From the IMG/VR virus record IMGVR_UViG_3300020048_000030: a DNA stretch of 24,416 nucleotides; one strand, 5' to 3'. The DNA comes from an uncultured virus (IMG/VR IMGVR_UViG_3300020048_000030) (Duplodnaviria > Heunggongvirae > Uroviricota > Caudoviricetes). A model generated the notes under the pieces. That model was not told where the DNA came from. It ran no database searches and saw only the letters and a list, made by a program, of their open reading frames with translations. A program made the translations under genes and the position numbers. Of the stretch, positions 1-23,445 are shown one piece after another (positions within the stretch are counted from its first letter, which is position 1; every line of letters begins with the position of its first letter).

Positions 1-339
1 ATAAGCAATATTGTTATCAACTTGTTCTGCAACATATTCTGAATATTTAATACTATTATCTACATATTCTGATAACATTTCAAAATTTTGTAAGTTTGTT
101 TCAGTATTTTCTGCAATATATTCAGCATAATCAATAGATTTATCAAGATGTTCAGCTAAATATTCTGAATATTTAATAGTTTTATCTACATTTTCAGCAA
201 CATATTCAGTAAAATCAATTGATTTACTTAAATTTTCAGAAATATATTCAGCATAATCAATGTTTTTGTCCACTTTTTCTGCTAAGTAATTAGAATAATT
301 AATAGATTTTTCAAGAGTTTCTGCTAAATAATCACTATG
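1..339 (-). repeat. Tandem 42-nt/14-aa repeat (consensus YxEY[LIV]AExxDKxIx) in the protease C-terminal extension
   Basis: HSDYLAETLEKSIN/YSNYLAEKVDKNID/YAEYISENLSKSID/FTEYVAENVDKTIK/YSEYLAEHLDKSID/YAEYIAENTETNLQ/NFEMLSEYVDNSIK/YSEYVAEQVDNNIA; at least 8 units, truncated by the window edge. Confidence 0.9.
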
Positions 340-1206
340 TTTAACAAGATTTTCTGATTGTGATTTCAATGTTTGATTTTCATTTACTAAAATTTGAACA
401 TTATCTGCTAGATAATCTAAATATTTAGTCATTTTACTGTAATTTTCCATAAGAATTTCATATTGTTCTTGTAACTTTACTAATTCTTCTGGATTCTTCC
501 CATCTTTAATATTTTGCATTAGTTCTTCTTTAATTTTAGAAGTTTCATTTGCCAAATATTCTGTATATTCAGTCATTTGTGACTGTGTTACTTTGTCATT
601 TTTATTCATATCGAATAATTCATTAATTTTTGACTCATTGGACATATCTACTATCCTTAAGTTTACTGATTCATTGAATCCTAAAGATTCATTAATAACA
701 TTTAAATTCATTTTTGCTGATGCAAATCCAGGATCTGCCACAGCATCATAAGTGAATAATTTCTTAACTGTAACAGTACCATCTGATTCTGTAACACCAG
801 CAGCTCTTGAAGATACAAATAAAGGACAACCATCTAATACTAATTCTTTTGCAGTCTTACCATTAGGTGTGTTCAATAATCTTATTGATCCATCAATTCT
901 GTTTTTTGATTCATTATAAGTAGCAGACTGTATTAAGTGTGATACTCTTGTTAATGATGTGTCAAAAACATCAGGATGGTCAAATTCTCCATAAACTACA
1001 CCTAATGACTTAATCCTACCTTGCATTTCATACAAATGTGGTAAGAATCTATCTTTGGTGTAAATTCTTTCATTTCTATTTTTAATATCAAATTCAGTAA
1101 AAATACCAGAAAGAATAAATTTGTCTCGTTTAATTTCAGATGCACCTTCATTTAACATTAATCCACTAAGATTACTTTCCATGATAAGTACGGGTTTCAT
1201 TTCCAT
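1..1206 (-). CDS. gp21: T4 gp21-like prohead protease fused to a scaffold-like 14-aa repeat region (3' end runs off window; missing from ORF track)
   Basis: Manual translation from ATG at 1206 (alternative 1200): MEMKPVLIMESNLSGLMLNEG...KNRNERIY...GEFDHP...RVSH...LLNTPNGK...VSSRAAG...YDAVADPGF. These match gp21 motifs (NRN.R.Y, GE.(N/D)HP, VSSR..G, D.V.DP). The frame is open to position 1. Confidence 0.92.
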   Translation of the reverse strand, partial: MEMKPVLIMESNLSGLMLNEGASEIKRDKFILSGIFTEFDIKNRNERIYTKDRFLPHLYEMQGRIKSLGVVYGEFDHPDVFDTSLTRVSHLIQSATYNESKNRIDGSIRLLNTPNGKTAKELVLDGCPLFVSSRAAGVTESDGTVTVKKLFTYDAVADPGFASAKMNLNVINESLGFNESVNLRIVDMSNESKINELFDMNKNDKVTQSQMTEYTEYLANETSKIKEELMQNIKDGKNPEELVKLQEQYEILMENYSKMTKYLDYLADNVQILVNENQTLKSQSENLVKHSDYLAETLEKSINYSNYLAEKVDKNIDYAEYISENLSKSIDFTEYVAENVDKTIKYSEYLAEHLDKSIDYAEYIAENTETNLQNFEMLSEYVDNSIKYSEYVAEQVDNNIAY

Positions 1207-1325: not shown

Positions 1326-1381
1326 ATTAAAATAAATAAAAAAGGGAAATTCTATAATTTCCCTTTTTTATTTATTTTAAT
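1326..1381. terminator. Intrinsic terminator, 26-bp perfect inverted repeat with CTAT loop, after the peptidase gene
   Basis: attaaaataaataaaaaagggaaatt-ctat-aatttcccttttttatttattttaat; A/T tracts on both sides; overlaps the peptidase stop codon. Confidence 0.85.
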
Positions 1382-3434
1382 GTTTTTCATAATATTTTTT
1401 GATTTCATGTTCAAATTCAGAACAAAAATTTACAAATTTATCTGGATAACTTTTAAATATTGTTTTATCAGATCTTTTATAATCAATACTACTTAATTCA
1501 TCCAATATCATTTTAGTTAATGATGGTCTAACTTTTGGTGCATCATTAATTTCAAAATCTTTAAATATTAATTTCACTAATTCTGGTTCATTATCAACTA
1601 ATTTTCCAAATAATTGATATTGGTCTTGGTGAAATCTACTTGTATTAATTTGAAAATCTTCTAATGTTCCTAAAAATCCACTACCAGAATTTATTTTAAT
1701 TTTATTTTTAGAATCACTACCATATTTTAATAATGATTCCATATTTGTCCAATAATCATATATCCATTCAGTATATTCATCTGGATTTATTTCAGTACCA
1801 TGTACACCATAATTAACTTTATAACCTAATTTTTTAAAACCATGATCAATTTTTAACCACAATTCACTTTTAAGTGTTTTAGTATTATTAGTTTTCATAT
1901 CATCCATTACTGATTTAAGTAAGTCTAAATCATATGATGATAAATCTTTAAATGCCTTTTGTTGTTCTTCAGTATAATTAAATTCACTTTTAGATATTTC
2001 TTTTTTAACTGATTTATTTTTATTAATCTTATCTAATTGTTTTTCTAATATATTAAGTTGTTTAGCCAAATCATTAGAATCTTCTTCATCATATGTTTGG
2101 TCTAATTGATATTTAACTTCACTTATTTTCTTTATTAATTCTTCTTCTGACATAGTATTTTGTGTATTATCTGACTCTATATCATTTGGATTTATACCTG
2201 TCATTAAATGTTTTTTAAAATTATCAAAATCACCTATATTAGTATATTTTTTTAATGTATCATCATCACTTAAATAAATATCAAAATCAATAATTCTTAA
2301 TCCAAAAAAATCATCATAATCAACATTACTAAAATAGATTTCTACTGTTTCTTTAAAATCATCAGGATTTAAACATTCATAATTCATATCAGTCAATAAT
2401 TCTTGAACAAGTACAAATAATTCTTCCATTGTATCATATTCAGATTTTTTCTTATTAGTATAGTGTTGTTTATAAACAGTATTTCTTTTAGCATTACTAT
2501 ATCCCCTATCCCATACATCCCAATCTTGTTCATAGCTAAATCTACCAATACTTTTACTTACTAAAGTTGGATCTCTTTTAACTGGTAATTTTTCCCAATC
2601 TATATTAATAGCAGCATTTACTAATTTTTCCAAGTGTACAATATCTTGTTCTTCGTTAAAAGTGTGTTCTGCTTTATAACCCATTGATATATTAGTACAT
2701 TCAGGTATAGTTTCCATAAATACGCCTGAATCACACCACATACCAGTTGGATCATTTCTATAATCCATTCCATTTTTTTTAAATTCACTAATCAAAGCAT
2801 TAACAAATTCACTTGAACAACATTCTGAATACATCTGTTCAGATATTATTGAAGTATTTGCTTTTCTATCAAATGCAACACATTTATCATAATCTTTAAA
2901 AAAGTCACCCCTTGATTTTAATGCTTGTTTAGAACCCCATGTTCCAGATGGTGATGTAACGCCTTCTTCACCTCTGAAAAAATAATATAACCCAGGTATA
3001 TTTGCTTCCATCATTTTTATCATAACTACTATACCTGCTTTATCATCACCACCTAATGTTGTTGTTCCATCAGTCTTAATTATATCACCATCAATTACAT
3101 GCCAAACTCTTTTATATTCTCTACAATAAGTATCTAAATGACCACAAAACATAGTCTTACTAGTACCTACTTTTTTATAATAATTACCATGTCCATCAAT
3201 TTCCATATTTGGAAAAAATTCAACCAAGGTTTTTTCATAATTAAATGGAATTTGCATTTTAGTTAAATTCAGAAATAATTGTTTAACACTACCATCCATT
3301 GTATAATCAATATTATCAACTTTTTCAACATCTTTATTCTTATTACCTTTTACTATTGGATAATTTTGTGTTTTTTCTCGTGTTCTAATTTCCCTTTTTT
3401 TATTTCTTCTTCTTTCATTTAATTCTTCATACAT
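1377..3434 (-). CDS. M28/M20-clan zinc metallopeptidase with long acidic C-terminal extension
   Basis: Metal-ligand motifs CGHLDT, LGGDDKAG, FFRGEE, AFDRK and NISMGY..EH in the first ~285 aa; the remaining ~400 aa are unrecognised and include a coiled coil. Confidence 0.8.
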   Translation of the reverse strand: MYEELNERRRNKKREIRTREKTQNYPIVKGNKNKDVEKVDNIDYTMDGSVKQLFLNLTKMQIPFNYEKTLVEFFPNMEIDGHGNYYKKVGTSKTMFCGHLDTYCREYKRVWHVIDGDIIKTDGTTTLGGDDKAGIVVMIKMMEANIPGLYYFFRGEEGVTSPSGTWGSKQALKSRGDFFKDYDKCVAFDRKANTSIISEQMYSECCSSEFVNALISEFKKNGMDYRNDPTGMWCDSGVFMETIPECTNISMGYKAEHTFNEEQDIVHLEKLVNAAINIDWEKLPVKRDPTLVSKSIGRFSYEQDWDVWDRGYSNAKRNTVYKQHYTNKKKSEYDTMEELFVLVQELLTDMNYECLNPDDFKETVEIYFSNVDYDDFFGLRIIDFDIYLSDDDTLKKYTNIGDFDNFKKHLMTGINPNDIESDNTQNTMSEEELIKKISEVKYQLDQTYDEEDSNDLAKQLNILEKQLDKINKNKSVKKEISKSEFNYTEEQQKAFKDLSSYDLDLLKSVMDDMKTNNTKTLKSELWLKIDHGFKKLGYKVNYGVHGTEINPDEYTEWIYDYWTNMESLLKYGSDSKNKIKINSGSGFLGTLEDFQINTSRFHQDQYQLFGKLVDNEPELVKLIFKDFEINDAPKVRPSLTKMILDELSSIDYKRSDKTIFKSYPDKFVNFCSEFEHEIKKYYEKH

Positions 3435-3460
3435 AATTCTAATTATTATTTTTGTATCTT

Positions 3461-3469
3461 TATATATAA
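3461..3469 (-). promoter_or_regulatory. Putative late promoter core TTATATATA
   Basis: 26 nt upstream of the peptidase ATG; the context ctttatatataaaataaaaa is identical to that at 24290-24309. Confidence 0.6.
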
Positions 3470-3487
3470 AATAAAAAAATATTAATA

Positions 3488-3519
3488 TTTGTTTTAAAAA
3501 TAAATTATTAGTATATTTG
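3488..3519 (+). promoter_or_regulatory. Bacteroidota-type housekeeping promoter (-33 TTTG, -7 TATATTTG)
   Basis: TTTG at 3488-3491, 20-nt spacer, TATATTTG at 3512-3519, ATG at 3539; fits the TTTG-N19-21-TAnnTTTG consensus. Confidence 0.7.
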
Positions 3520-3538
3520 TAAAAATAAATTTTGATAT

Positions 3539-4393
3539 ATGAAAGATTACAAAAAATTTTTATTAGAAAAATTAATTGATGACACCCTTCATTATTCTTG
3601 TTATGATTGGGATGACAATATACTTGTTATGCCAACTGTTATTCATGTAGAACATTTAGAAAATGGTGAATGGATACCTAAAGATATATCAACTGCTAAG
3701 TTTGCTGAAATAAGAAGTGAAATTTTCAAAAACACTGATGGTGAAGATTCATCTTGGAAATTAAGAAATGATAATTATAAAGATACATATTGTGAATTTA
3801 GAGATTATGGTCCAAGAGGTGAAATTGCATTTGTGGAAGATATGATAAATGCAATAAAAACAAATAGTTTTGGACCAGTATGGGATAAATTCATACAATG
3901 CATAGTTGATGGTCACGTATTTATGATTATTACTGCAAGAGGACATGAACCACAAACAATAAGAAATGGTATTAATTGGATTATTTTTAATTATCTTAAA
4001 CCAAAACAAAAGGAAGAAATGGAAAAAAATCTAAGAGAATTCAATGTATTATTTGGTTGGGATGATAAAACTTGGTCTTTTAAAGATTTAATAAATCATT
4101 ACTTAGATATGTGTGATTTTGTTGGAATTTATTCAAGTTATTTTTCTAAAAAATTTGGTACAGAAGGACAATCTGCAAAACCAGAAAAATATAAAGCAAT
4201 GGCAATTAGATCATTTACTGAAAAAATAAGTGATTTTGGAAAACAAATTAATAAAAAAGTTAAAGTTGGGTTTTCTGATGATGATTTATCTACTGTTCAA
4301 CATATTCATAAATATTTAAGAGATGAGTTATCTTTGGATTTTGATCTAGATTATTCAGTATATCACACAAAAGATGGTGTAGTAAAATTATAA
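3539..4393 (+). CDS. HAD-superfamily-like phosphatase/hydrolase with capsid-targeting-like leader
   Basis: Motif I-like YDWDDNIL, motif II-like IITARGH, conserved K (PEKYK), motif IV-like GFSDDD; N-terminus MKDYKKFLLE. Confidence 0.6.
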   Translation: MKDYKKFLLEKLIDDTLHYSCYDWDDNILVMPTVIHVEHLENGEWIPKDISTAKFAEIRSEIFKNTDGEDSSWKLRNDNYKDTYCEFRDYGPRGEIAFVEDMINAIKTNSFGPVWDKFIQCIVDGHVFMIITARGHEPQTIRNGINWIIFNYLKPKQKEEMEKNLREFNVLFGWDDKTWSFKDLINHYLDMCDFVGIYSSYFSKKFGTEGQSAKPEKYKAMAIRSFTEKISDFGKQINKKVKVGFSDDDLSTVQHIHKYLRDELSLDFDLDYSVYHTKDGVVKL

Positions 4394-4396
4394 AGA

Positions 4397-4424
4397 AAAA
4401 GTCTGAATTATAATTCAGACTTTT
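4397..4424. terminator. Bidirectional intrinsic terminator (perfect 28-nt palindrome) between convergent genes
   Basis: aaaagtctgaattataattcagactttt equals its own reverse complement. Confidence 0.85.
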
Positions 4425-4569
4425 GTTTTTCTATTCCTAAGATATGTTCTTCTATCCAATCTATACTATATAATGGTTGTCCGTCTTCATCTAAAATATT
4501 CATAAGTTGTTCTGCAACTTCCATTCTATTTTTATCACTACAATTACTACAATTACAATTATTTTCCAT
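4408..4569 (-). CDS. 53-aa mini-protein resembling the portal C-terminal (crown) segment
   Basis: MENNCNCSNCSDKNRMEVAEQLMNILDEDGQPLYSIDWIEEHILGIEKQKSEL; fills the gap between the portal stop and the terminator; aligns by eye with portal KRATIASTLTSNLQNAEGESWLATEWIIRNIM. Confidence 0.7.
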   Translation of the reverse strand: MENNCNCSNCSDKNRMEVAEQLMNILDEDGQPLYSIDWIEEHILGIEKQKSEL

Positions 4570-4597
4570 ATCTTTATTTAATTATTTTTTTTAATTT

Positions 4598-6343
4598 TTA
4601 TTGTGCTGGTGCTTGAGCCTGTGGGGGGGTTTGAGCCTGTGGAGGAGTTTCTTCACCGCCACCTTGTGCAGGAGCTTCACCACCAAAACCACCTTCTTCA
4701 CCACCGCCTTCACCACCTTCATTAAAAAATGGTGCACCAGGCCCAGTTGGCATTCCACCACCCCCACCTTCACCTTCTTGACTACCTTCTTCACCAGTTG
4801 GTGTTCCAGCAAGTGCTGCTTTTTCTTTAAGTTTATATCTTTCATTTTCTGCAATATCTTCATCTGTAAATTTCATGATATTTCTTATAATCCATTCAGT
4901 TGCTAACCAAGATTCACCTTCTGCATTTTGTAAATTACTAGTTAAAGTAGATGCAATTGTTGCTCTTTTTTCTAAATTACCTAAGTGTTTCCATTCTTCA
5001 AATAATTCATTTGAATTAAAATCTACATTAAGTTCTTTAATAAAATTATGATCTTGCATTAATTCAGGGAAATCTCTCATCATTTGAATTTTAAGAGGTT
5101 TAACCATCAATTCTCTAAATACTGTTCTTATTCTTCTTATAAAATTATGAAATTTCATTTCATCTCTAGTTAATTCAGCAGCATCAGTATAAATATTACC
5201 ACCACCTTGTTCTTTTTCAAATCTTGAAAATGGCATACGTGATGATCTTTTAAGATTATTCATAAACCAATTAAGAATTTGATCTTCATTTAAATCATTT
5301 CCTTGTGGTGTTTCTATTGATACATCTGGTTGTCCACCTTCAGAAGATGAGGGAAACCAAAAATCTTTACTATGTGGCATCTGTGATGAACCATTAATAG
5401 ACATTGTTCCTAAATTATCATCCCATGTGATTTCTTCATGATATTCAGACATTAATTGATAAATCTGTTGTTCTGCTTGTTGTCTAGATAAACCACCAAC
5501 TGGAATAACAAATTTTTTATAAACTGCTGCTTGATTAATATTATAAATTAATTTAGTTTGTTCAACTAATTTAACTTGATTATATGGTCTAATAAGTGGT
5601 TCAACATAAGATGTTTCACCATAATCCATATTATTACCATAAGATATATAGATAATCTGCGCATCAAGTAAAACTCTTCTTAATTTTGCATCATCTGGAT
5701 ATTGTATCCAAACTATTGTTCCTGATTCTGGATCAGTTGCTGGTACTAAAGTAATTGGATCTAATTTTATTATATCGGTAATATTTCTTTGCTTTTTATC
5801 ATAAACAATTTCATATGCAATAAAACCATCTATTAATAAATCCCTCATCATATACCACGCTTTAATACCATCATTAAATCCAAAAGTATTGTATAATCTA
5901 TCAAAATTTTCATGTACCTTCTTCCTTATAACATCATCAAATTCTTCTGGTAAATCTTTAGCAAAACAAAATTTATTTGCATCATCAAAAATAACACATT
6001 CATCAGCTATTTGATTTACAAAATCCCTAATTTCATCTTTAATAGAATATTGTCTTAATATTTTTCTTTTATCAAAATATGACCTATCTAAATATGCAAT
6101 AGATTTCTTATCTAAAATCTTAGATATTACTTTTTTAGTAAATAAATCATACATATATGGTCCTTGTACTACATTGGCCATATTAGAATATGAATCAGGA
6201 TCATCATTCGCGCCAATAGCGAAAGATTGTTGTATTGATGATATATCATATGATAAACCATAATTACTTATTTTTCTTAACATTTTACTAAAATATCCAG
6301 TATTAGTCAAATTTGAACCACCTTGTTGAGTGTAACCAGCCAT
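4598..6343 (-). CDS. gp20: T4 gp20-like portal vertex protein
   Basis: Motifs I..IADECVI, RDLLIDG, SYVEPLIRPYNQVKLVE...IY, F.IPVGGL...AEQ, DFWFP, I.TP.G, L.RSSRMPFSRF, LTRDEMKF..FI.R.R..F and N.LFEE.K; 581 aa with a G/E/P/Q-rich tail. Confidence 0.93.
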   Translation of the reverse strand: MAGYTQQGGSNLTNTGYFSKMLRKISNYGLSYDISSIQQSFAIGANDDPDSYSNMANVVQGPYMYDLFTKKVISKILDKKSIAYLDRSYFDKRKILRQYSIKDEIRDFVNQIADECVIFDDANKFCFAKDLPEEFDDVIRKKVHENFDRLYNTFGFNDGIKAWYMMRDLLIDGFIAYEIVYDKKQRNITDIIKLDPITLVPATDPESGTIVWIQYPDDAKLRRVLLDAQIIYISYGNNMDYGETSYVEPLIRPYNQVKLVEQTKLIYNINQAAVYKKFVIPVGGLSRQQAEQQIYQLMSEYHEEITWDDNLGTMSINGSSQMPHSKDFWFPSSSEGGQPDVSIETPQGNDLNEDQILNWFMNNLKRSSRMPFSRFEKEQGGGNIYTDAAELTRDEMKFHNFIRRIRTVFRELMVKPLKIQMMRDFPELMQDHNFIKELNVDFNSNELFEEWKHLGNLEKRATIASTLTSNLQNAEGESWLATEWIIRNIMKFTDEDIAENERYKLKEKAALAGTPTGEEGSQEGEGGGGGMPTGPGAPFFNEGGEGGGEEGGFGGEAPAQGGGEETPPQAQTPPQAQAPAQ

Positions 6344-6385: not shown

Positions 6386-7123
6386 TCAATCTTTAAATAA
6401 TTTGTAATTAGACTCTAAATTTTTTAATTTTTTATAATAATCTTTAATATCTTCTTCATAAGTTTCATGTATTTCAGATAATTCTTCTACTAATTTTTCT
6501 ATTCTTTCCCTCTCTTTTGTACCTTTTTCATATTTATCCATTAATATTTTCATAAGTGCAACATTTAATGGTCTCATATGTATGTGAATTGTTAAATACA
6601 TTAAATTAGTTGATATCCCAAATAATTCAGTTATTTTTGTTATATCAAATGCAGAAATTGCATAATGATAACCACCATTACTTTGTAATGTTTTATATAT
6701 CTGTTCGAAATTTACTGGTAATGGTTTTTCTTCCATAAAATTTGGTGCATCTCCATTAAAATCAAATAATTCTTTAAAAACTACATTAAGTTGATTAAAA
6801 TATAAAGATTTATAATCAAATGGTAAATAATCTAAATTAATTGCATACATAACATGTTTACCACTTTCTTTAATTCTGTAATCAATAGTAAAAATAGGAC
6901 AATATAATTTGTTTTCATTGAAATTATAATTTATAAGATAAAATTTTCCTACTTGTATTTTATTATGGGGTACATTCATAAACCAATCAGTAGGTTCTCT
7001 TCTCATTAAAAATACTTCCTTATTAGATGCATTTATTAATGAAACTAAATCATTACCAAATTGACTACGTAATGCCCTTACATAATAATCAAAAGGATGT
7101 CCTTGTTCAGTAATAAGTGCCAT
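6386..7123 (-). CDS. gp2: T4 gp2-like DNA end protector protein
   Basis: GKFYLINY...PIF...MYAINLDYLP resembles gp2 (G..Y...Y...P.I...YGLNLHY.P); lies near gp4 as in T4-like phages. Confidence 0.65.
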   Translation of the reverse strand: MALITEQGHPFDYYVRALRSQFGNDLVSLINASNKEVFLMRREPTDWFMNVPHNKIQVGKFYLINYNFNENKLYCPIFTIDYRIKESGKHVMYAINLDYLPFDYKSLYFNQLNVVFKELFDFNGDAPNFMEEKPLPVNFEQIYKTLQSNGGYHYAISAFDITKITELFGISTNLMYLTIHIHMRPLNVALMKILMDKYEKGTKERERIEKLVEELSEIHETYEEDIKDYYKKLKNLESNYKLFKD

Positions 7124-8505
7124 TAGTTATTTCTTTTATTTTTCATATGTGAACATATTTCATCTAACCAACCATTTCTATATGCCGCACAAACTAATGC
7201 GTTATTCTTAATTCTAAGTTCACTCTTTGAATTGTATTTTAATGATTCTTCATGACATTTTTCTTTAGTCCAATAATTTCTTGGTTTTTGTGTAGGTATT
7301 ATATGTGAACAAACTTCATCTAACCAACCATTTTTACGTGAAGATTCATATGCTCCTTTTGATGAATTTTCAAATTCATGTCTACTTTTATATTTTAATG
7401 CTTCTTTTTTACATTTTTCATATGTCCATCTTAATGGACCACCAATTGCACCGGTTTTTGCTTTATTTAATACACACCAACCTTCACTGTTATATTTTTC
7501 AACATAATACCCTTCTAACTTAATTGCGTCATTAACATTAATATATTCAGTTAATTGTTTTCTGATTGGTTTTAATTTGGATTCTTTTATGTGTTTTGTA
7601 ACTTGATCATTATCACAATTATCTCTATCTTTTTGTCTTTTTTCTAAATTATATGTTAAACCAACATAAACTGAATTATCAGAAAATTCATAACAATAAA
7701 TACATCTTTTAGTATTATTATTTTGTATTATCATATGTGAACATATTTCATCTAACCATCCATTTTTAAGTGCACTATTATATGTGCTACTATTATTTTT
7801 CTGAAATTCACTTCTTGTTTTACATTTTAATGCTTCTTCTTTGCATAGTTCTTTAGTCCAATAACCATTTGGTTTTTGTAAAATTATCATATGATTACAA
7901 ATTTCATCTAACCAACCATTTCTGTGAGCAGCAGAATAAATATTACTAGAATTTTTACTAAATTCTGTTCTGTTAATATATTTTAATGCTTCTTCTTGAC
8001 ATCTTTTTTTAGTCCAATAATTATTTGGTTTATGTAAAAGTATCATATGATTACAAATTTCATCTAACCAACCATTTATTCTTGATATTTTATATACACT
8101 TGCATTATTTTTCTGAAATTCACTTCTTGTATTGTATTTTAGTGTTTCTTCTTGACATTTTTCTTTAGTCCAATAACCAGTTGGTTTTTGTGTAGGTATC
8201 ATATGAGAACATATTTCATCTAACCAACCATTTTTATTAGATATAACATGTACACTTGCATTATTTATCCACAATTCATTTCTTGTTTGATATTTTAATG
8301 ATTCTTCATGACATTTTTCTTTAGTCCAATAACCATTTGGTTTTATTAAATTTATCATATGACTACATATATCAATCATCCAACCATTTCGTATAGCTGA
8401 TTTGATACATCCTTTAGCATTTTTTCTAAATTCTTTTTTTGTTTGATATTTTAACGCTTCTTCCTTACATTTTTCATAAGTCCAATAATTTCTAGATTTT
8501 ACCAT
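7123..8505 (-). CDS. Free-standing GIY-YIG homing-endonuclease-like protein with seven ~52-aa helical repeats
   Basis: Central CIYCYEFSDNSVYVGLT...KR...E..YVEKY...LN catalytic domain; five N-terminal and two C-terminal WTKEKCxEEALKYxxRxEF...GWLDEICSHM repeats; wedged between gp4 and gp2 with near-zero spacing. Confidence 0.8.
   Translation of the reverse strand: MVKSRNYWTYEKCKEEALKYQTKKEFRKNAKGCIKSAIRNGWMIDICSHMINLIKPNGYWTKEKCHEESLKYQTRNELWINNASVHVISNKNGWLDEICSHMIPTQKPTGYWTKEKCQEETLKYNTRSEFQKNNASVYKISRINGWLDEICNHMILLHKPNNYWTKKRCQEEALKYINRTEFSKNSSNIYSAAHRNGWLDEICNHMIILQKPNGYWTKELCKEEALKCKTRSEFQKNNSSTYNSALKNGWLDEICSHMIIQNNNTKRCIYCYEFSDNSVYVGLTYNLEKRQKDRDNCDNDQVTKHIKESKLKPIRKQLTEYINVNDAIKLEGYYVEKYNSEGWCVLNKAKTGAIGGPLRWTYEKCKKEALKYKSRHEFENSSKGAYESSRKNGWLDEVCSHIIPTQKPRNYWTKEKCHEESLKYNSKSELRIKNNALVCAAYRNGWLDEICSHMKNKRNN
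7730..8495 (-). repeat. Five tandem 156-nt repeats encoding the WTKEKC...GWLDEICSHM module
   Basis: agtccaataa and atttcatctaacca motifs recur at 156-nt intervals; two further copies at about 7140-7430. Confidence 0.85.
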
Positions 8506-9648: not shown

Positions 9649-10773
9649 ATGTCATTAAGAAAATCACAAATAGAAGTAGATGAAATAATTAATAAAAGAT
9701 TAGAAGAAATTAATGTATCATTAAGAGAACCATATATACATAAGAATAATAGGTCAAAATTACAATTAATATGTAATATAGATAATCATATATGGGATGT
9801 TAAATACTTTTCTTTTATAAATAAAAAAAGTGGATGTCCAAGATGTGCTGGTCAAATTATATATAAAGAAGAAGCTGAAAATAATGTTAATAAAAGATTA
9901 AGAGAAATAAATGCAACATTAAGAGAACCATTTACTTATATTGGTGCTGAAAAAACAAGACTGAAATTAAAGTGTAACATAGATGGATATGAATGGGAAA
10001 CACATTATTCAAATTTTGTGAATAATAAAACTGGTTGTTTTAGATGTAGTGGTCATGTTCTTTATAATTATGAAATAGTAGATAATATTAATAGAATATT
10101 GAAAGAAATAAATGCGACATTAAGAGAACCATACATACACATAAATAATAAATCAAAATTAAAATTAAAATGTAAAATAGATAATTGTGAGTGGGAATCT
10201 ACTTATTATAATTTTGTAAATAGTAATAAAGGATGTCCAAAATGTGCAAATGTTTTAAAATTAACACAAGAAGAAGTAGAAGAAAAGATATTAAGACAAT
10301 GTAAAATAATGAATTATGAAATAAATAAACCATTTGTTTATGAAAATACACGTACACTATCATTAGAAATTAAGTGTAATAAATGTAATCATATTTGGAA
10401 TGTTAAATTAAATAATTTTATAAGTCATAAAAGTGGATGTCCTAAGTGTAATACATCAAAAGGTGAAAATAAAATTGAAACTATATTAAAAGAAAAAAAC
10501 ATACAGTATGAAACACAAAAAATTTTTTATGGGTGTATAGATAAAGGTTTTTTGAAATTTGATTTTTATTTACCCAATATTAATACATGTATTGAATTTG
10601 ATGGTGAACAACATTTTAAATCATTTAAATTTTTTGGTGGTAAAGAAAAATTAAAACAAAATAAAAAAAGAGATGAAATAAAAAATCAATACTGTTTAGA
10701 AAACAATATTGATTTAATTCGTATTCCATATTATGAATTTGATAATATTGAAGAAATATTAAAAAGAATGTAA
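9649..10773 (+). CDS. Homing-endonuclease-like protein: four Zn-ribbon repeats plus C-terminal PD-(D/E)XK (Vsr/DUF559-like) nuclease
   Basis: Repeats LREPY..KL.L.C..D...W.....F...K.GCP.C; tail SKGE..I...L...FDFYLP..N.CIEFDGEQHF...RD..K..YC..N.I.LIRIPY; 3' end overlaps gp55 by 15 nt. Confidence 0.8.
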   Translation: MSLRKSQIEVDEIINKRLEEINVSLREPYIHKNNRSKLQLICNIDNHIWDVKYFSFINKKSGCPRCAGQIIYKEEAENNVNKRLREINATLREPFTYIGAEKTRLKLKCNIDGYEWETHYSNFVNNKTGCFRCSGHVLYNYEIVDNINRILKEINATLREPYIHINNKSKLKLKCKIDNCEWESTYYNFVNSNKGCPKCANVLKLTQEEVEEKILRQCKIMNYEINKPFVYENTRTLSLEIKCNKCNHIWNVKLNNFISHKSGCPKCNTSKGENKIETILKEKNIQYETQKIFYGCIDKGFLKFDFYLPNINTCIEFDGEQHFKSFKFFGGKEKLKQNKKRDEIKNQYCLENNIDLIRIPYYEFDNIEEILKRM

Positions 10774-17458: not shown

Positions 17459-18592
17459 AAACTTATTTAATCTTTTCAATATATACTTATATGGTAGAAA
17501 TTACATCAGAAATTTTAATTGAAAAATTAAAAGTAGTTCATAATAATAAATATGAATACCCATTATTTAATTATACTAATATGCATATGAAATTAAAAAT
17601 TATATGTAAAGAACATGGTGTATTTGAACAAAGTGCTCATTCACACTTAAAGGGATATGGTTGTCCAAAATGTAAATTTGATAAATTAAAAAATATTTTT
17701 AGTCATAATAAAGAAAAATTCATAGAAAATGCAAATAAAGTACATAATTTTGAATATGATTATCATTTAGTTGATTATATTAATGCACATGCAAAAGTAA
17801 AAATAATATGTCCTATTCACGGTATTTTTGAACAAATTCCTAATAATCATATAAGTAAAAAACAAGGGTGTCCTCTTTGTTCTTATGATAATAAAAAATT
17901 AGATTATTATAGTACATTAGAAAAATTAAAAATAATACATAATAATAAATATGACTATTCATTAAATACTATTATTGAATCCACAAATAAATTAAAAATT
18001 ATTTGTTCTATTCATGGTGAATTTAAACAAAAATTACACATTCATATGGATGGTCATGGGTGTCCAAAATGTGGTACTAATAAAATAACAAAAACAGAAA
18101 ATATATTCATAGAAGAATCTAATTTAATTCATAATAATAAATATGATTATTCTTTAGTAGATTATAAAAATGCCTATACTAAAGTAAAAATAATATGTCC
18201 TATTCATGGTGAATTTTTACAAACACCCCAATCTCATTTAAATGGTAGTGGTTGTCCAATTTGTAAATCATCAAAAGGTGAAAAAATAATAAAAGAATTT
18301 TTAGAAAATAATAATATTGAATTTGAAACACAGAAAAAATTTAAAGATTGTAAAAATGAAAAATCATTAAAATTTGATTTTTATCTTTTAGATTATAATA
18401 CTTGTATAGAATTTGATGGTAAACAACATTTTGAATCAGTTGAACATTTTGGTGGAATTAAAGCATTTCATAAACAACAATTAAGAGATAAAATTAAAAC
18501 TGAATTTTGTAAAAATAATAATATAAATTTAATAAGAATTAAATATGATGAAAATATTCAAACTATATTATATAATGTCATTTTTTCCTAAA
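17443..18592 (+). mobile_element. Endonuclease cassette bounded by a 19-nt imperfect direct repeat
   Basis: aatgtcatttttttctaaa (17443-17461) and aatgtcattttttcctaaa (18574-18592) differ by one base and flank the nuclease ORF. Confidence 0.55.
17491..18591 (+). CDS. Homing-endonuclease-like protein: four H-N-K-Y-D-Y/CPxHG..GCPxC Zn repeats (DUF723-like) plus PD-(D/E)XK (Vsr/DUF559-like) nuclease
   Basis: Repeats HNNKYDYS...KVKIICPIHGEF.Q....HL.G.GCP.C; tail SKGEKII...FDFYL...CIEFDGKQHF...RDKIK..FC..NNI.LIRI. Confidence 0.82.
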   Translation: MVEITSEILIEKLKVVHNNKYEYPLFNYTNMHMKLKIICKEHGVFEQSAHSHLKGYGCPKCKFDKLKNIFSHNKEKFIENANKVHNFEYDYHLVDYINAHAKVKIICPIHGIFEQIPNNHISKKQGCPLCSYDNKKLDYYSTLEKLKIIHNNKYDYSLNTIIESTNKLKIICSIHGEFKQKLHIHMDGHGCPKCGTNKITKTENIFIEESNLIHNNKYDYSLVDYKNAYTKVKIICPIHGEFLQTPQSHLNGSGCPICKSSKGEKIIKEFLENNNIEFETQKKFKDCKNEKSLKFDFYLLDYNTCIEFDGKQHFESVEHFGGIKAFHKQQLRDKIKTEFCKNNNINLIRIKYDENIQTILYNVIFS

Positions 18593-22324: not shown

Positions 22325-22377
22325 AATTATTATATATTAAATTTTATGAATTGATTATTTTTAATATATATATTTAT

Positions 22378-23445
22378 ATGAAAGATAGAAAACCAATGGG
22401 GTATTGGACTAAAGAAAAATGTCAAGAAGTTACTTTACAATTTGATAATAAAAGTGATTTTATGAAAAATTATTTAGGTGCATATAAATCATGTTTAAGA
22501 AATAATTGGTTAGATGAAGTTTGTTCTCATATGAAACAATTTAGAAAACCAGATGGTTATTGGACTAAGGAAAAATGTCAAGAAGAATTGGGCATTATTC
22601 ATAATTATAAATATGATTATTCACTATTTAAGTTTATAGATTTTAAAACTAAAGTTAAAATAATTTGTCCTATCCATGGAGAGTTTGAACAGAGATTTGA
22701 TCATCATTTAAATGGGCATAGGTGTAAAAGATGTAAAGGATTTGAAATATTAAATCATGAAGATTTTATGAAAAGATCGAATGAAGTACATAATAATAAA
22801 TATAAATATCCATTTAATGATTATAAGAATAATCATACTAAAGTTAAAATAATTTGTCCTATACATGGTGAATTTGAACAAATACCCAGTGGTCATTTAA
22901 ATGGTAAAGGTTGTAGAAGATGTAAAGGAATTGAAGTATTAAATCAGCAAGATTTTATAAAAAAATCAAGTGAAGTACATAATTTTGAATATGATTATTC
23001 ATTATCTGATTATATTAATGCAAAAACTAAAGTTAAAATTATTTGTAAAAATCATGGAGTATTTGAACAAACACCAGATAATCATATTTCAAAAAAACAA
23101 GGATGTCCGTATTGTAATAAAAGTGTAGGTGAAGAAAAAATAAAAAAATATTTGGATGAATTTAAAATTGATTATAACAGACAATATAATTTATATGAAG
23201 AAAACAAAAAACATCCATTAAGAGCAGATTTTTATTTACCTAAATATAATTTAATCATAGAATATAATGGAACTCAACACTATAATGAAATTAAATATTT
23301 TGGTGGATTAAAAACATTAATAGATATTAAAGATAGAGATAGAAGAAAAAAATTAATATGTGAAAAAAATAATATTAAATTAATTATAATACCATATACT
23401 AAATTCAATGAAATAAAAAATATTTTATTAACAAATATAATTTAA
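22378..23445 (+). CDS. Chimeric homing-endonuclease-like protein: WTKEKC repeat + three CPxHG Zn repeats + PD-(D/E)XK nuclease
   Basis: The likely start is ATG 22378 (MKDRKPMGYWTKEKC), not TTG 22351; tail SVGEEKI...ADFYLP...IEYNGTQHY...RD..K...C..NNI.LIIIPY; its stop shares TTAA with the gp15-like gene. Confidence 0.8.
   Translation: MKDRKPMGYWTKEKCQEVTLQFDNKSDFMKNYLGAYKSCLRNNWLDEVCSHMKQFRKPDGYWTKEKCQEELGIIHNYKYDYSLFKFIDFKTKVKIICPIHGEFEQRFDHHLNGHRCKRCKGFEILNHEDFMKRSNEVHNNKYKYPFNDYKNNHTKVKIICPIHGEFEQIPSGHLNGKGCRRCKGIEVLNQQDFIKKSSEVHNFEYDYSLSDYINAKTKVKIICKNHGVFEQTPDNHISKKQGCPYCNKSVGEEKIKKYLDEFKIDYNRQYNLYEENKKHPLRADFYLPKYNLIIEYNGTQHYNEIKYFGGLKTLIDIKDRDRRKKLICEKNNIKLIIIPYTKFNEIKNILLTNII

Follow-up and report, generated by a model that had tools for sequence, protein, structure and literature searches.

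Every tailed-phage head is nucleated at its portal, which also serves as the gate for the DNA, and bacterial immune sensors have portals among their targets. In T4, the genes for the small proteins gp67 and gp68 lie directly after gene 20, the portal gene, and neither protein is known to resemble the portal crown. A further class of proteins relevant here is the microProteins, which are single-domain paralogues that engage the interaction surface of their parent protein; the concept comes from eukaryotic regulators.

The crown of the T4 portal gp20 comprises residues 451-524 and consists of helices alpha10-alpha12 (PMC4493910). The portal nucleates the scaffolding core, the crown points toward the inside of the capsid, and in T4 it bears an internal extension that is unassigned (PMC9958956 and PMC4493910). 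Both gp67 and gp68 are prohead core components (PMC9958956).

The window analyzed here is a 24,416-nt stretch of DNA from an uncultured virus of the Caudoviricetes (IMG/VR record IMGVR_UViG_3300020048_000030). A sequence-only reading of this DNA had reported a 53-aa open reading frame directly downstream of the portal gene that copies part of the portal's C-terminal crown, and the frame is present at that position (the mini-gene; Table 1). Alignments, profiles, and substitution patterns indicate that it is almost certainly a genuine protein-coding gene under purifying selection and that its product is a paralogue of the portal crown that exists as a separate protein. As for its role, the overall best explanation is that the crown paralogue acts as a portal-associated head-assembly accessory, which is proposed tentatively and with slightly less than even confidence.

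Genomic setting of the mini-gene

With a GC content of 0.20-0.31, the window is A/T-rich, and its minus strand encodes a T4-like head and neck module comprising a head-closure protein, a 245-aa protein, the portal, and, further on, a prohead protease. The DNA of the portal gene is 67-70% identical to that of uncultured huge-phage records of 462-735 kb. The low-complexity portal tail that separates the crown from the mini-gene includes a PSGPGAxFF motif, which is kept across 31 aligned clade portals, and the tail, disordered and acidic, would reach inward from the crown to the inside of the capsid.

Several other genes of the window have features of their own. The homologue of the prohead protease (1-1206, minus strand) runs on into ~13-aa repeats of the YSEYVAE/YAEYIAE type, as does its counterpart in the huge-phage genome LR756501, and its product resembles a fusion of protease and scaffold, with the repeats as a coiled-coil region. 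Three genes occupy the interval between portal and protease (1377-4569), namely the mini-gene, the 284-aa gene convergent with it, and a gene for a 685-aa peptidase-like protein, the N-terminal half of which matches a PHROG 'peptidase' family at E 6e-57; in the corresponding region of LR756501 (71000-75500, L018) the protease comes directly after the portal. A 460-aa protein encoded at 7123-8505 (minus strand) is built of ~45-aa repeat units ending in NGWLDEICSHM-like sequences and matches phrog_20046, a family of unknown function, at E 1e-104. In addition, three HNH/homing-endonuclease-like paralogues (9649-10773, 17491-18591, and 22351-23445, all on the plus strand; phrog_559, E 1e-68 to 3e-92) are encoded on the strand opposite to their neighbors.

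Table 1. Features of the portal and mini-gene region, in window coordinates
Feature	Position	Strand	Evidence and remarks
T4-type portal gene, 581 aa	4598..6343	-	Pfam PF07230 E 4.1e-68; phmmer against T4 gp20 structures E 1e-25
Portal crown segment, residues ~447-506	4826..5005	-	Homologous to the mini-protein family; hhalign range 449-506; mini-family HMM 447-499
Portal C-terminal tail, low-complexity, Gly/Glu/Pro/Gln-rich, ~75 aa	4601..4825	-	Between crown and mini-gene; translation, tandem repeats
Spacer from portal stop to mini-gene start, 28 nt, A/T-rich	4570..4597	-	No Shine-Dalgarno
Mini-gene, 53 aa, ATG start, pI 4.2 (12 acidic, 4 basic residues)	4408..4569	-	ORF call; homologues; dN/dS; composition
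Conserved core of the mini-protein, R15-I46: helix, DEDGQP loop, helix	4432..4527	-	Alignments, hhalign, AF2; matches portal ~458-495
9-nt tandem repeat, 2.2 copies, encoding the Cys-Asn-rich N-terminus	4537..4556	-	TRF; copy number differs among close relatives
Bidirectional intrinsic terminator, 12-bp hairpin	4397..4424	both	Scored as terminator on both strands; dG -12.7 kcal/mol
Convergent gene, 284 aa, function unknown	3539..4393	+	Shares the terminator; synteny with the mini-gene holds in every relative seen

The portal transcription unit has the mini-gene as its final gene ahead of the terminator, and from this position the mini-gene is probably co-transcribed and made with the portal, late in infection. 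A Shine-Dalgarno-like sequence was found upstream of none of the 18 window genes checked, the mini-gene included, and the start context of the mini-gene is like that of the other genes. Readthrough or fusion of the portal with the mini-gene was considered and is ruled out by the different frame and by the gap that follows the portal stop. The earlier remark that the frame ends within a terminator is correct, as its TAA stop (4408-4410) sits in the loop of the hairpin. In 5/5 aligned relatives the hairpin is found again, with stem sequences that differ, pairing that is preserved, and the TAA in the loop. The C-terminal tail of the mini-protein is whatever the terminator stem encodes and is variable among relatives. 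The convergent 284-aa gene, which reaches the terminator from the other side, has no Pfam or PHROG match.

At its N-terminus, the window protein has three cysteines (C5, C7, and C10), and thus the CxCxxC motif that the sequence-only reading had described. The motif does not hold as a defining feature, since it is lineage-specific and repeat-encoded: the cysteine count is 2 to 4 in the close relatives P0001-P0004 and zero in L010, L011, and L012, which are three of the seven syntenic orthologues. A conserved set of metal-ligand cysteines, as in a zinc-binding or CxxC-type small protein, is absent from these proteins.

Conservation and selection

A word-indexed protein search gave three relatives of the mini-protein with 66-79% identity. 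Scans of viral and metagenome contigs showed the order portal, mini-gene, and convergent gene of ~285 aa in the window, L001/L002, L010, L011, and L012; L009 has the mini-gene and a 286-aa gene, and its portal is cut off by the contig end. The position of the mini-gene is kept in at least five related lineages. The metagenome scan gave six loci, of which four were true and two (L013 and L014) were motif coincidences, and the genome-collection scan gave four, every one a motif coincidence within a large cellular protein. The six loci with the DNA pattern DEDGQP...W consisted of two already-known contigs and four unrelated proteins.

Two relatives lack the gene. In L005 and L006, with portals 74-79% identical, no mini copy was found within the 7.6-7.7 kb examined, which indicates that the gene is dispensable or replaceable. 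A different ORF of 55 aa, with no evident similarity to the mini-protein, lies directly past the portal in L005 (4826-4993, plus strand).

Across the seven orthologues, which are 42-68% identical, 14 columns are invariant, whereas the portals of the same genomes are 80-88% identical, and the mini-protein therefore evolves faster than the portal. Nonetheless, dN/dS of the core is 0.13-0.36 by the Nei-Gojobori method in 10/10 pairs, which are all the pairs among the window, L001, L010, L011, and L012. The sequence-only reading had taken the frame for a real gene rather than a decayed duplicate and had named conservation and dN/dS among relatives as the check. Both the core dN/dS and the retention of the same position across lineages bear this out, and the conservation in relatives was found.

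Homology to the portal crown

The similarity that drew attention to the mini-gene is an alignment with the portal of its own genome. Under Smith-Waterman, the top-scoring alignment joins mini-protein residues 12-44 to portal residues 457-490 with a score of 35, 8 identities, and one gap, and it is the one that the sequence-only reading had quoted. As a pairwise match, however, it lies within chance, because 11.35% of 2000 shuffles of the mini-protein score at least 35 and BLASTP against the portal does not report it, giving its best HSP elsewhere at E 5.1. The window mini-protein alone matches nothing in Pfam and nothing in PHROG. By profile comparison, the similarity of mini-protein to portal is significant only once relatives are added.

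The relatives come from an exhaustive hmmsearch with a 7-sequence profile over 1.84 billion proteins at a cut-off of E<=1e-3. It gave 26 matches, comprising 21 small stand-alone proteins (49-128 aa) and five long proteins, and no full-length portal was among them at this cut-off. The long proteins (P0005, P0014, P0022, P0027, and P0028) contain many short matched stretches and were left out as repeat proteins, a status that rests on P0027 and P0028, the two that were inspected. When 20 small relatives were scanned with Pfam, 11 matched positions 373-433 of the 433 in PF07230 (E 6e-10 to 0.046) and two exceeded the gathering score of this family. The remaining nine, among them the nearest kin of the window protein, did not match it.

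Profile-profile comparison with hhalign gave a graded picture. With seven orthologues against seven portals, mini-protein residues 13-50 aligned to portal residues 458-496 weakly (Prob 7%, P 0.005), in the same register as in the sequence-only reading, and a column shuffle reached this score once in 300. With the 25-member family, the alignment to the portal profile extended over 57 columns and portal residues 449-506 (Prob 96.2%, E 2.4e-9), and against 33 portals the family reached Prob 97.6% and E 4.3e-12. The narrow 12-member clade that holds the window protein still gave Prob 70.5% and E 3.9e-5 against the portals. In the control, the family profile was compared with 18 other window proteins and the best P was 0.041. 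Moreover, the plain family HMM, run on the window, found portal residues 447-499 with 33.3 bits and no second mini copy. Homology to the crown segment, which had been claimed on the pairwise alignment, is upheld by these comparisons at the family level. A PDB sequence search with the family profile returned two chance-level rows only (E 1.6 and 7.1), and T4 gp20 was unmatched in it.

Some members of the family call for comment. P0018 (128 aa, from a 995-bp contig) contains two tandem crown-like units and has the top Portal_T4 match among the small proteins, 38.8 bits in two stretches. Some of the most portal-like small proteins, a group that includes P0013, P0018, and P0026, could be fragments of portal genes that were miscalled. 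With P0013, the only match in a scan was a portal's own C-terminus, and scans for genomic loci with P0018, P0026, and P0020 found nothing. Longest contigs of equal length were seen for several small proteins and portals (P0013/P0045, 5378 bp; P0002/P0034, 53367 bp; P0031/P0035, 49016 bp), which hints that the members of each pair come from a shared contig.

Among 50,697 phage records searched by tblastn, family members or portal crowns of this kind were found in uncultured huge-phage records only. No description of a stand-alone crown-domain protein was found in the full-text literature covered, which excludes subscription journals and preprint supplements. The mini-protein appears, from its sequence relationships, to be a known portal domain that lives as an independent small gene, and its family is apparently undescribed.

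These data also bear on the simplest alternative, that a partial duplication of the portal left this frame as a decaying remnant, or that both the ORF and its similarity are due to chance. The chance-level pairwise score against its own portal and the variable, stem-encoded C-terminal tail are what such a frame would be expected to display. On the other side stand the low dN/dS of the core, the 14 columns that stay invariant across seven orthologues despite their divergence, and a family of 21 small relatives with profile matches to E 4e-12. As far as sequence evidence reaches, this alternative is refuted, and it is regarded as extremely improbable.

Extent and predicted structure of the crown-like segment

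The part of the crown that is represented in the mini-protein can be delimited through solved portals. By phmmer, residues 446-511 of the window portal align to residues 452-511 of the T4-type portal structure 9lu6. Combined with the definition of the T4 crown given above, this mapping suggests that the mini-protein corresponds to the greater part of alpha10, the loop, and alpha11. The longer members of the family also retain the start of alpha10 (E-W/Y-x-x-L) and alpha12 (T-D-E-E-I), and the long forms carry extra N-terminal helices that are unrelated to the portal.

An AF2 model made with the family alignment has helices at residues 8-24 and 36-42 joined by a short loop, with a mean pLDDT of 74.7. 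A Foldseek search of the PDB with this model gave no match at E<=1e-3. In a VIA-align comparison with 48,161 chains, the T4 portal ranked 8th through residues 450-504 (Z 3.1, rmsd 5.3, 48 aligned), a weak result that is tied with unrelated helical chains. The structure search is consistent with a crown-like fold of the modeled protein and says no more than that.

Origin of the family

A maximum-likelihood tree, obtained by quick search, compares the crown segments of 34 portals with 28 segments from small proteins over 67 columns; 35 of its 59 inner branches lack resolution. All 33 portals of the clade group together (SH-aLRT 94) to the exclusion of every small protein, and no small protein nests beside the portal of its own genome. 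The window protein belongs to a small-protein clade of 17 members (SH-aLRT 91). Within the limits of a short alignment, this topology fits one old duplication that was followed by faster change, rather than repeated recent copying.

A separate copy in a 735-kb genome

The complete genome LR756501 (735 kb), from a related phage, provides a second case. It has an intact 608-aa portal that is directly followed by the protease, and a 95-aa ORF located ~58 kb from this portal contains a separate copy of the crown. The 95-aa protein matches its own portal by BLASTP at E 4e-12 (21/53 identical) and the window portal at E 2e-11. Moreover, the window mini-protein matches the LR756501 portal at E 1e-5, with 13/31 identities between its residues 15-44 and portal residues 463-493. 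These BLASTP results and the complete LR756501 genome are independent of the contexts of the metagenomic small proteins. The neighbors of this copy have no head annotation, and a dUTPase gene adjoins it. Its location outside the head context argues against an obligatory link of the family to the head module.

The same comparisons raise the possibility of interference between phages, in which the product would act as a dominant-negative microprotein that poisons ring assembly by the portals of related competitors, whereas the portal of the phage itself would tolerate it through sufficient divergence. Acting through non-productive complexes is known for single-domain paralogues. The window protein would suit such a role in being closer to the foreign LR756501 crown than to its own portal, where the similarity is not significant. 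However, the LR756501 small protein matches its own portal as well as it does that of the window, and self-avoidance is therefore not general in the family; we consider this role improbable.

The crown hairpin may instead be re-used outside the portal, for example in DNA binding or as a generic dimerizing helix-loop-helix in another complex. A tiny helical domain would suit such re-use, as would the LR756501 copy outside a head-gene context and the extra N-terminal helices of the long forms, which have nothing to do with the portal. In addition, the genomic DNA of full heads is touched by both crown and wing (PMC9958956). The strongly acidic character of the window protein is unfavorable to a DNA-binding role, and the post-portal position, which is kept in every lineage relative that has the gene, speaks against re-use in general. 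Such re-use is considered rather unlikely.

Possible role in head assembly and in phage-host conflict

The mini-protein keeps the residues of the crown hairpin, from which crown-type helix-helix contacts would be its most likely mode of interaction. It may dock on portal crowns or on crown-binding partners inside the prohead. As an accessory, it could act on the timing or the capping of portal ring formation; alternatively, it could anchor or extend an internal structure atop the crown. This mechanism, head-assembly accessory action through crown-type helix contacts, is a possibility that is suggested with reserve by the conserved residues and by the T4 background given above. A binding prediction for portal residues 370-515 with the mini-protein family returned no answer (score 0.00, without controls) and weighs neither way.

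Besides assembly modulation and interference, the sequence-only reading had suggested an immune decoy, that is, a free crown fragment that titrates a portal-recognizing host sensor such as Avs4 or otherwise blunts portal-triggered defense. A portal-derived fragment made alongside the portal would be a candidate for this, and so would a gene that is patchily present among close relatives (L005 and L006 are without it) and that changes faster than the portal. Accessory or counter-defense genes often sit away from head genes, as the family does in LR756501. Against these points, the literature search found no paper that joins Avs4, portal, and crown, and a paper on a portal-sensing TIR defense protein often mentions the clip domain. 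Late co-expression with the portal would also be poor timing for a pre-emptive decoy. Overall, this idea is considered improbable.

A broader version of the conflict hypothesis treats the free crown domains as portal mimics of large T4-like and huge phages, which would be used in trans to blind portal sensors or to sabotage the rings of competitors, and not to build the phage's own head. The resemblance to a foreign crown, the patchy distribution, and the copy far from head genes would fit such an arms-race role, which is nevertheless thought quite unlikely. The head-assembly accessory remains the reading preferred here.

Comparison with known systems

The closest described counterpart of the mini-protein is the crown of T4-type gp20 (PF07230; PDB 3JA7, 6UZC, and 9LU6), with which it shares the register and the R, A, L, G, W-I, and I positions. 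Three residues that are invariant in the portals, R460, W484, and I489, have counterparts in R15, W38, and I43 of the mini-protein, for which a helix-loop-helix is predicted. In contrast to gp20, it is a separate 53-aa product, the counterpart of portal residues ~458-495 only, and it lacks the clip, stem, and wing domains that form the DNA channel of a functional portal as well as the alpha10 start (ELFEEW motif) and alpha12. It also differs from the gp20 crown in its own DEDGQP loop signature and in its faster evolution.

In its setting, the mini-protein resembles T4 gp67 and gp68 in being a small acidic protein directly downstream of the portal in a T4-like head module. When P0001-P0003 were compared with PHROG, 0 families were matched at E<=0.1, and PHROG provides no link to a gp67 or gp68 family.

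The separately encoded, conserved crown hairpin offers a natural probe of the binding partners of the crown. Depending on its role, it would represent a head-assembly factor of a new kind or, alternatively, a new type of mimic used in conflict. Moreover, about 20 unnamed small metagenomic proteins gain a name, and the case illustrates that a very short ORF beside a structural gene can be a domain paralogue overlooked by ordinary Pfam and PHROG scans.

Among described small proteins, the microProteins provide a conceptual parallel. The parent is a transcription factor in their case, whereas the parent of the mini-protein is a structural ring. Like them, the mini-protein is a small stand-alone copy of one interaction domain from a multi-domain, oligomeric parent.
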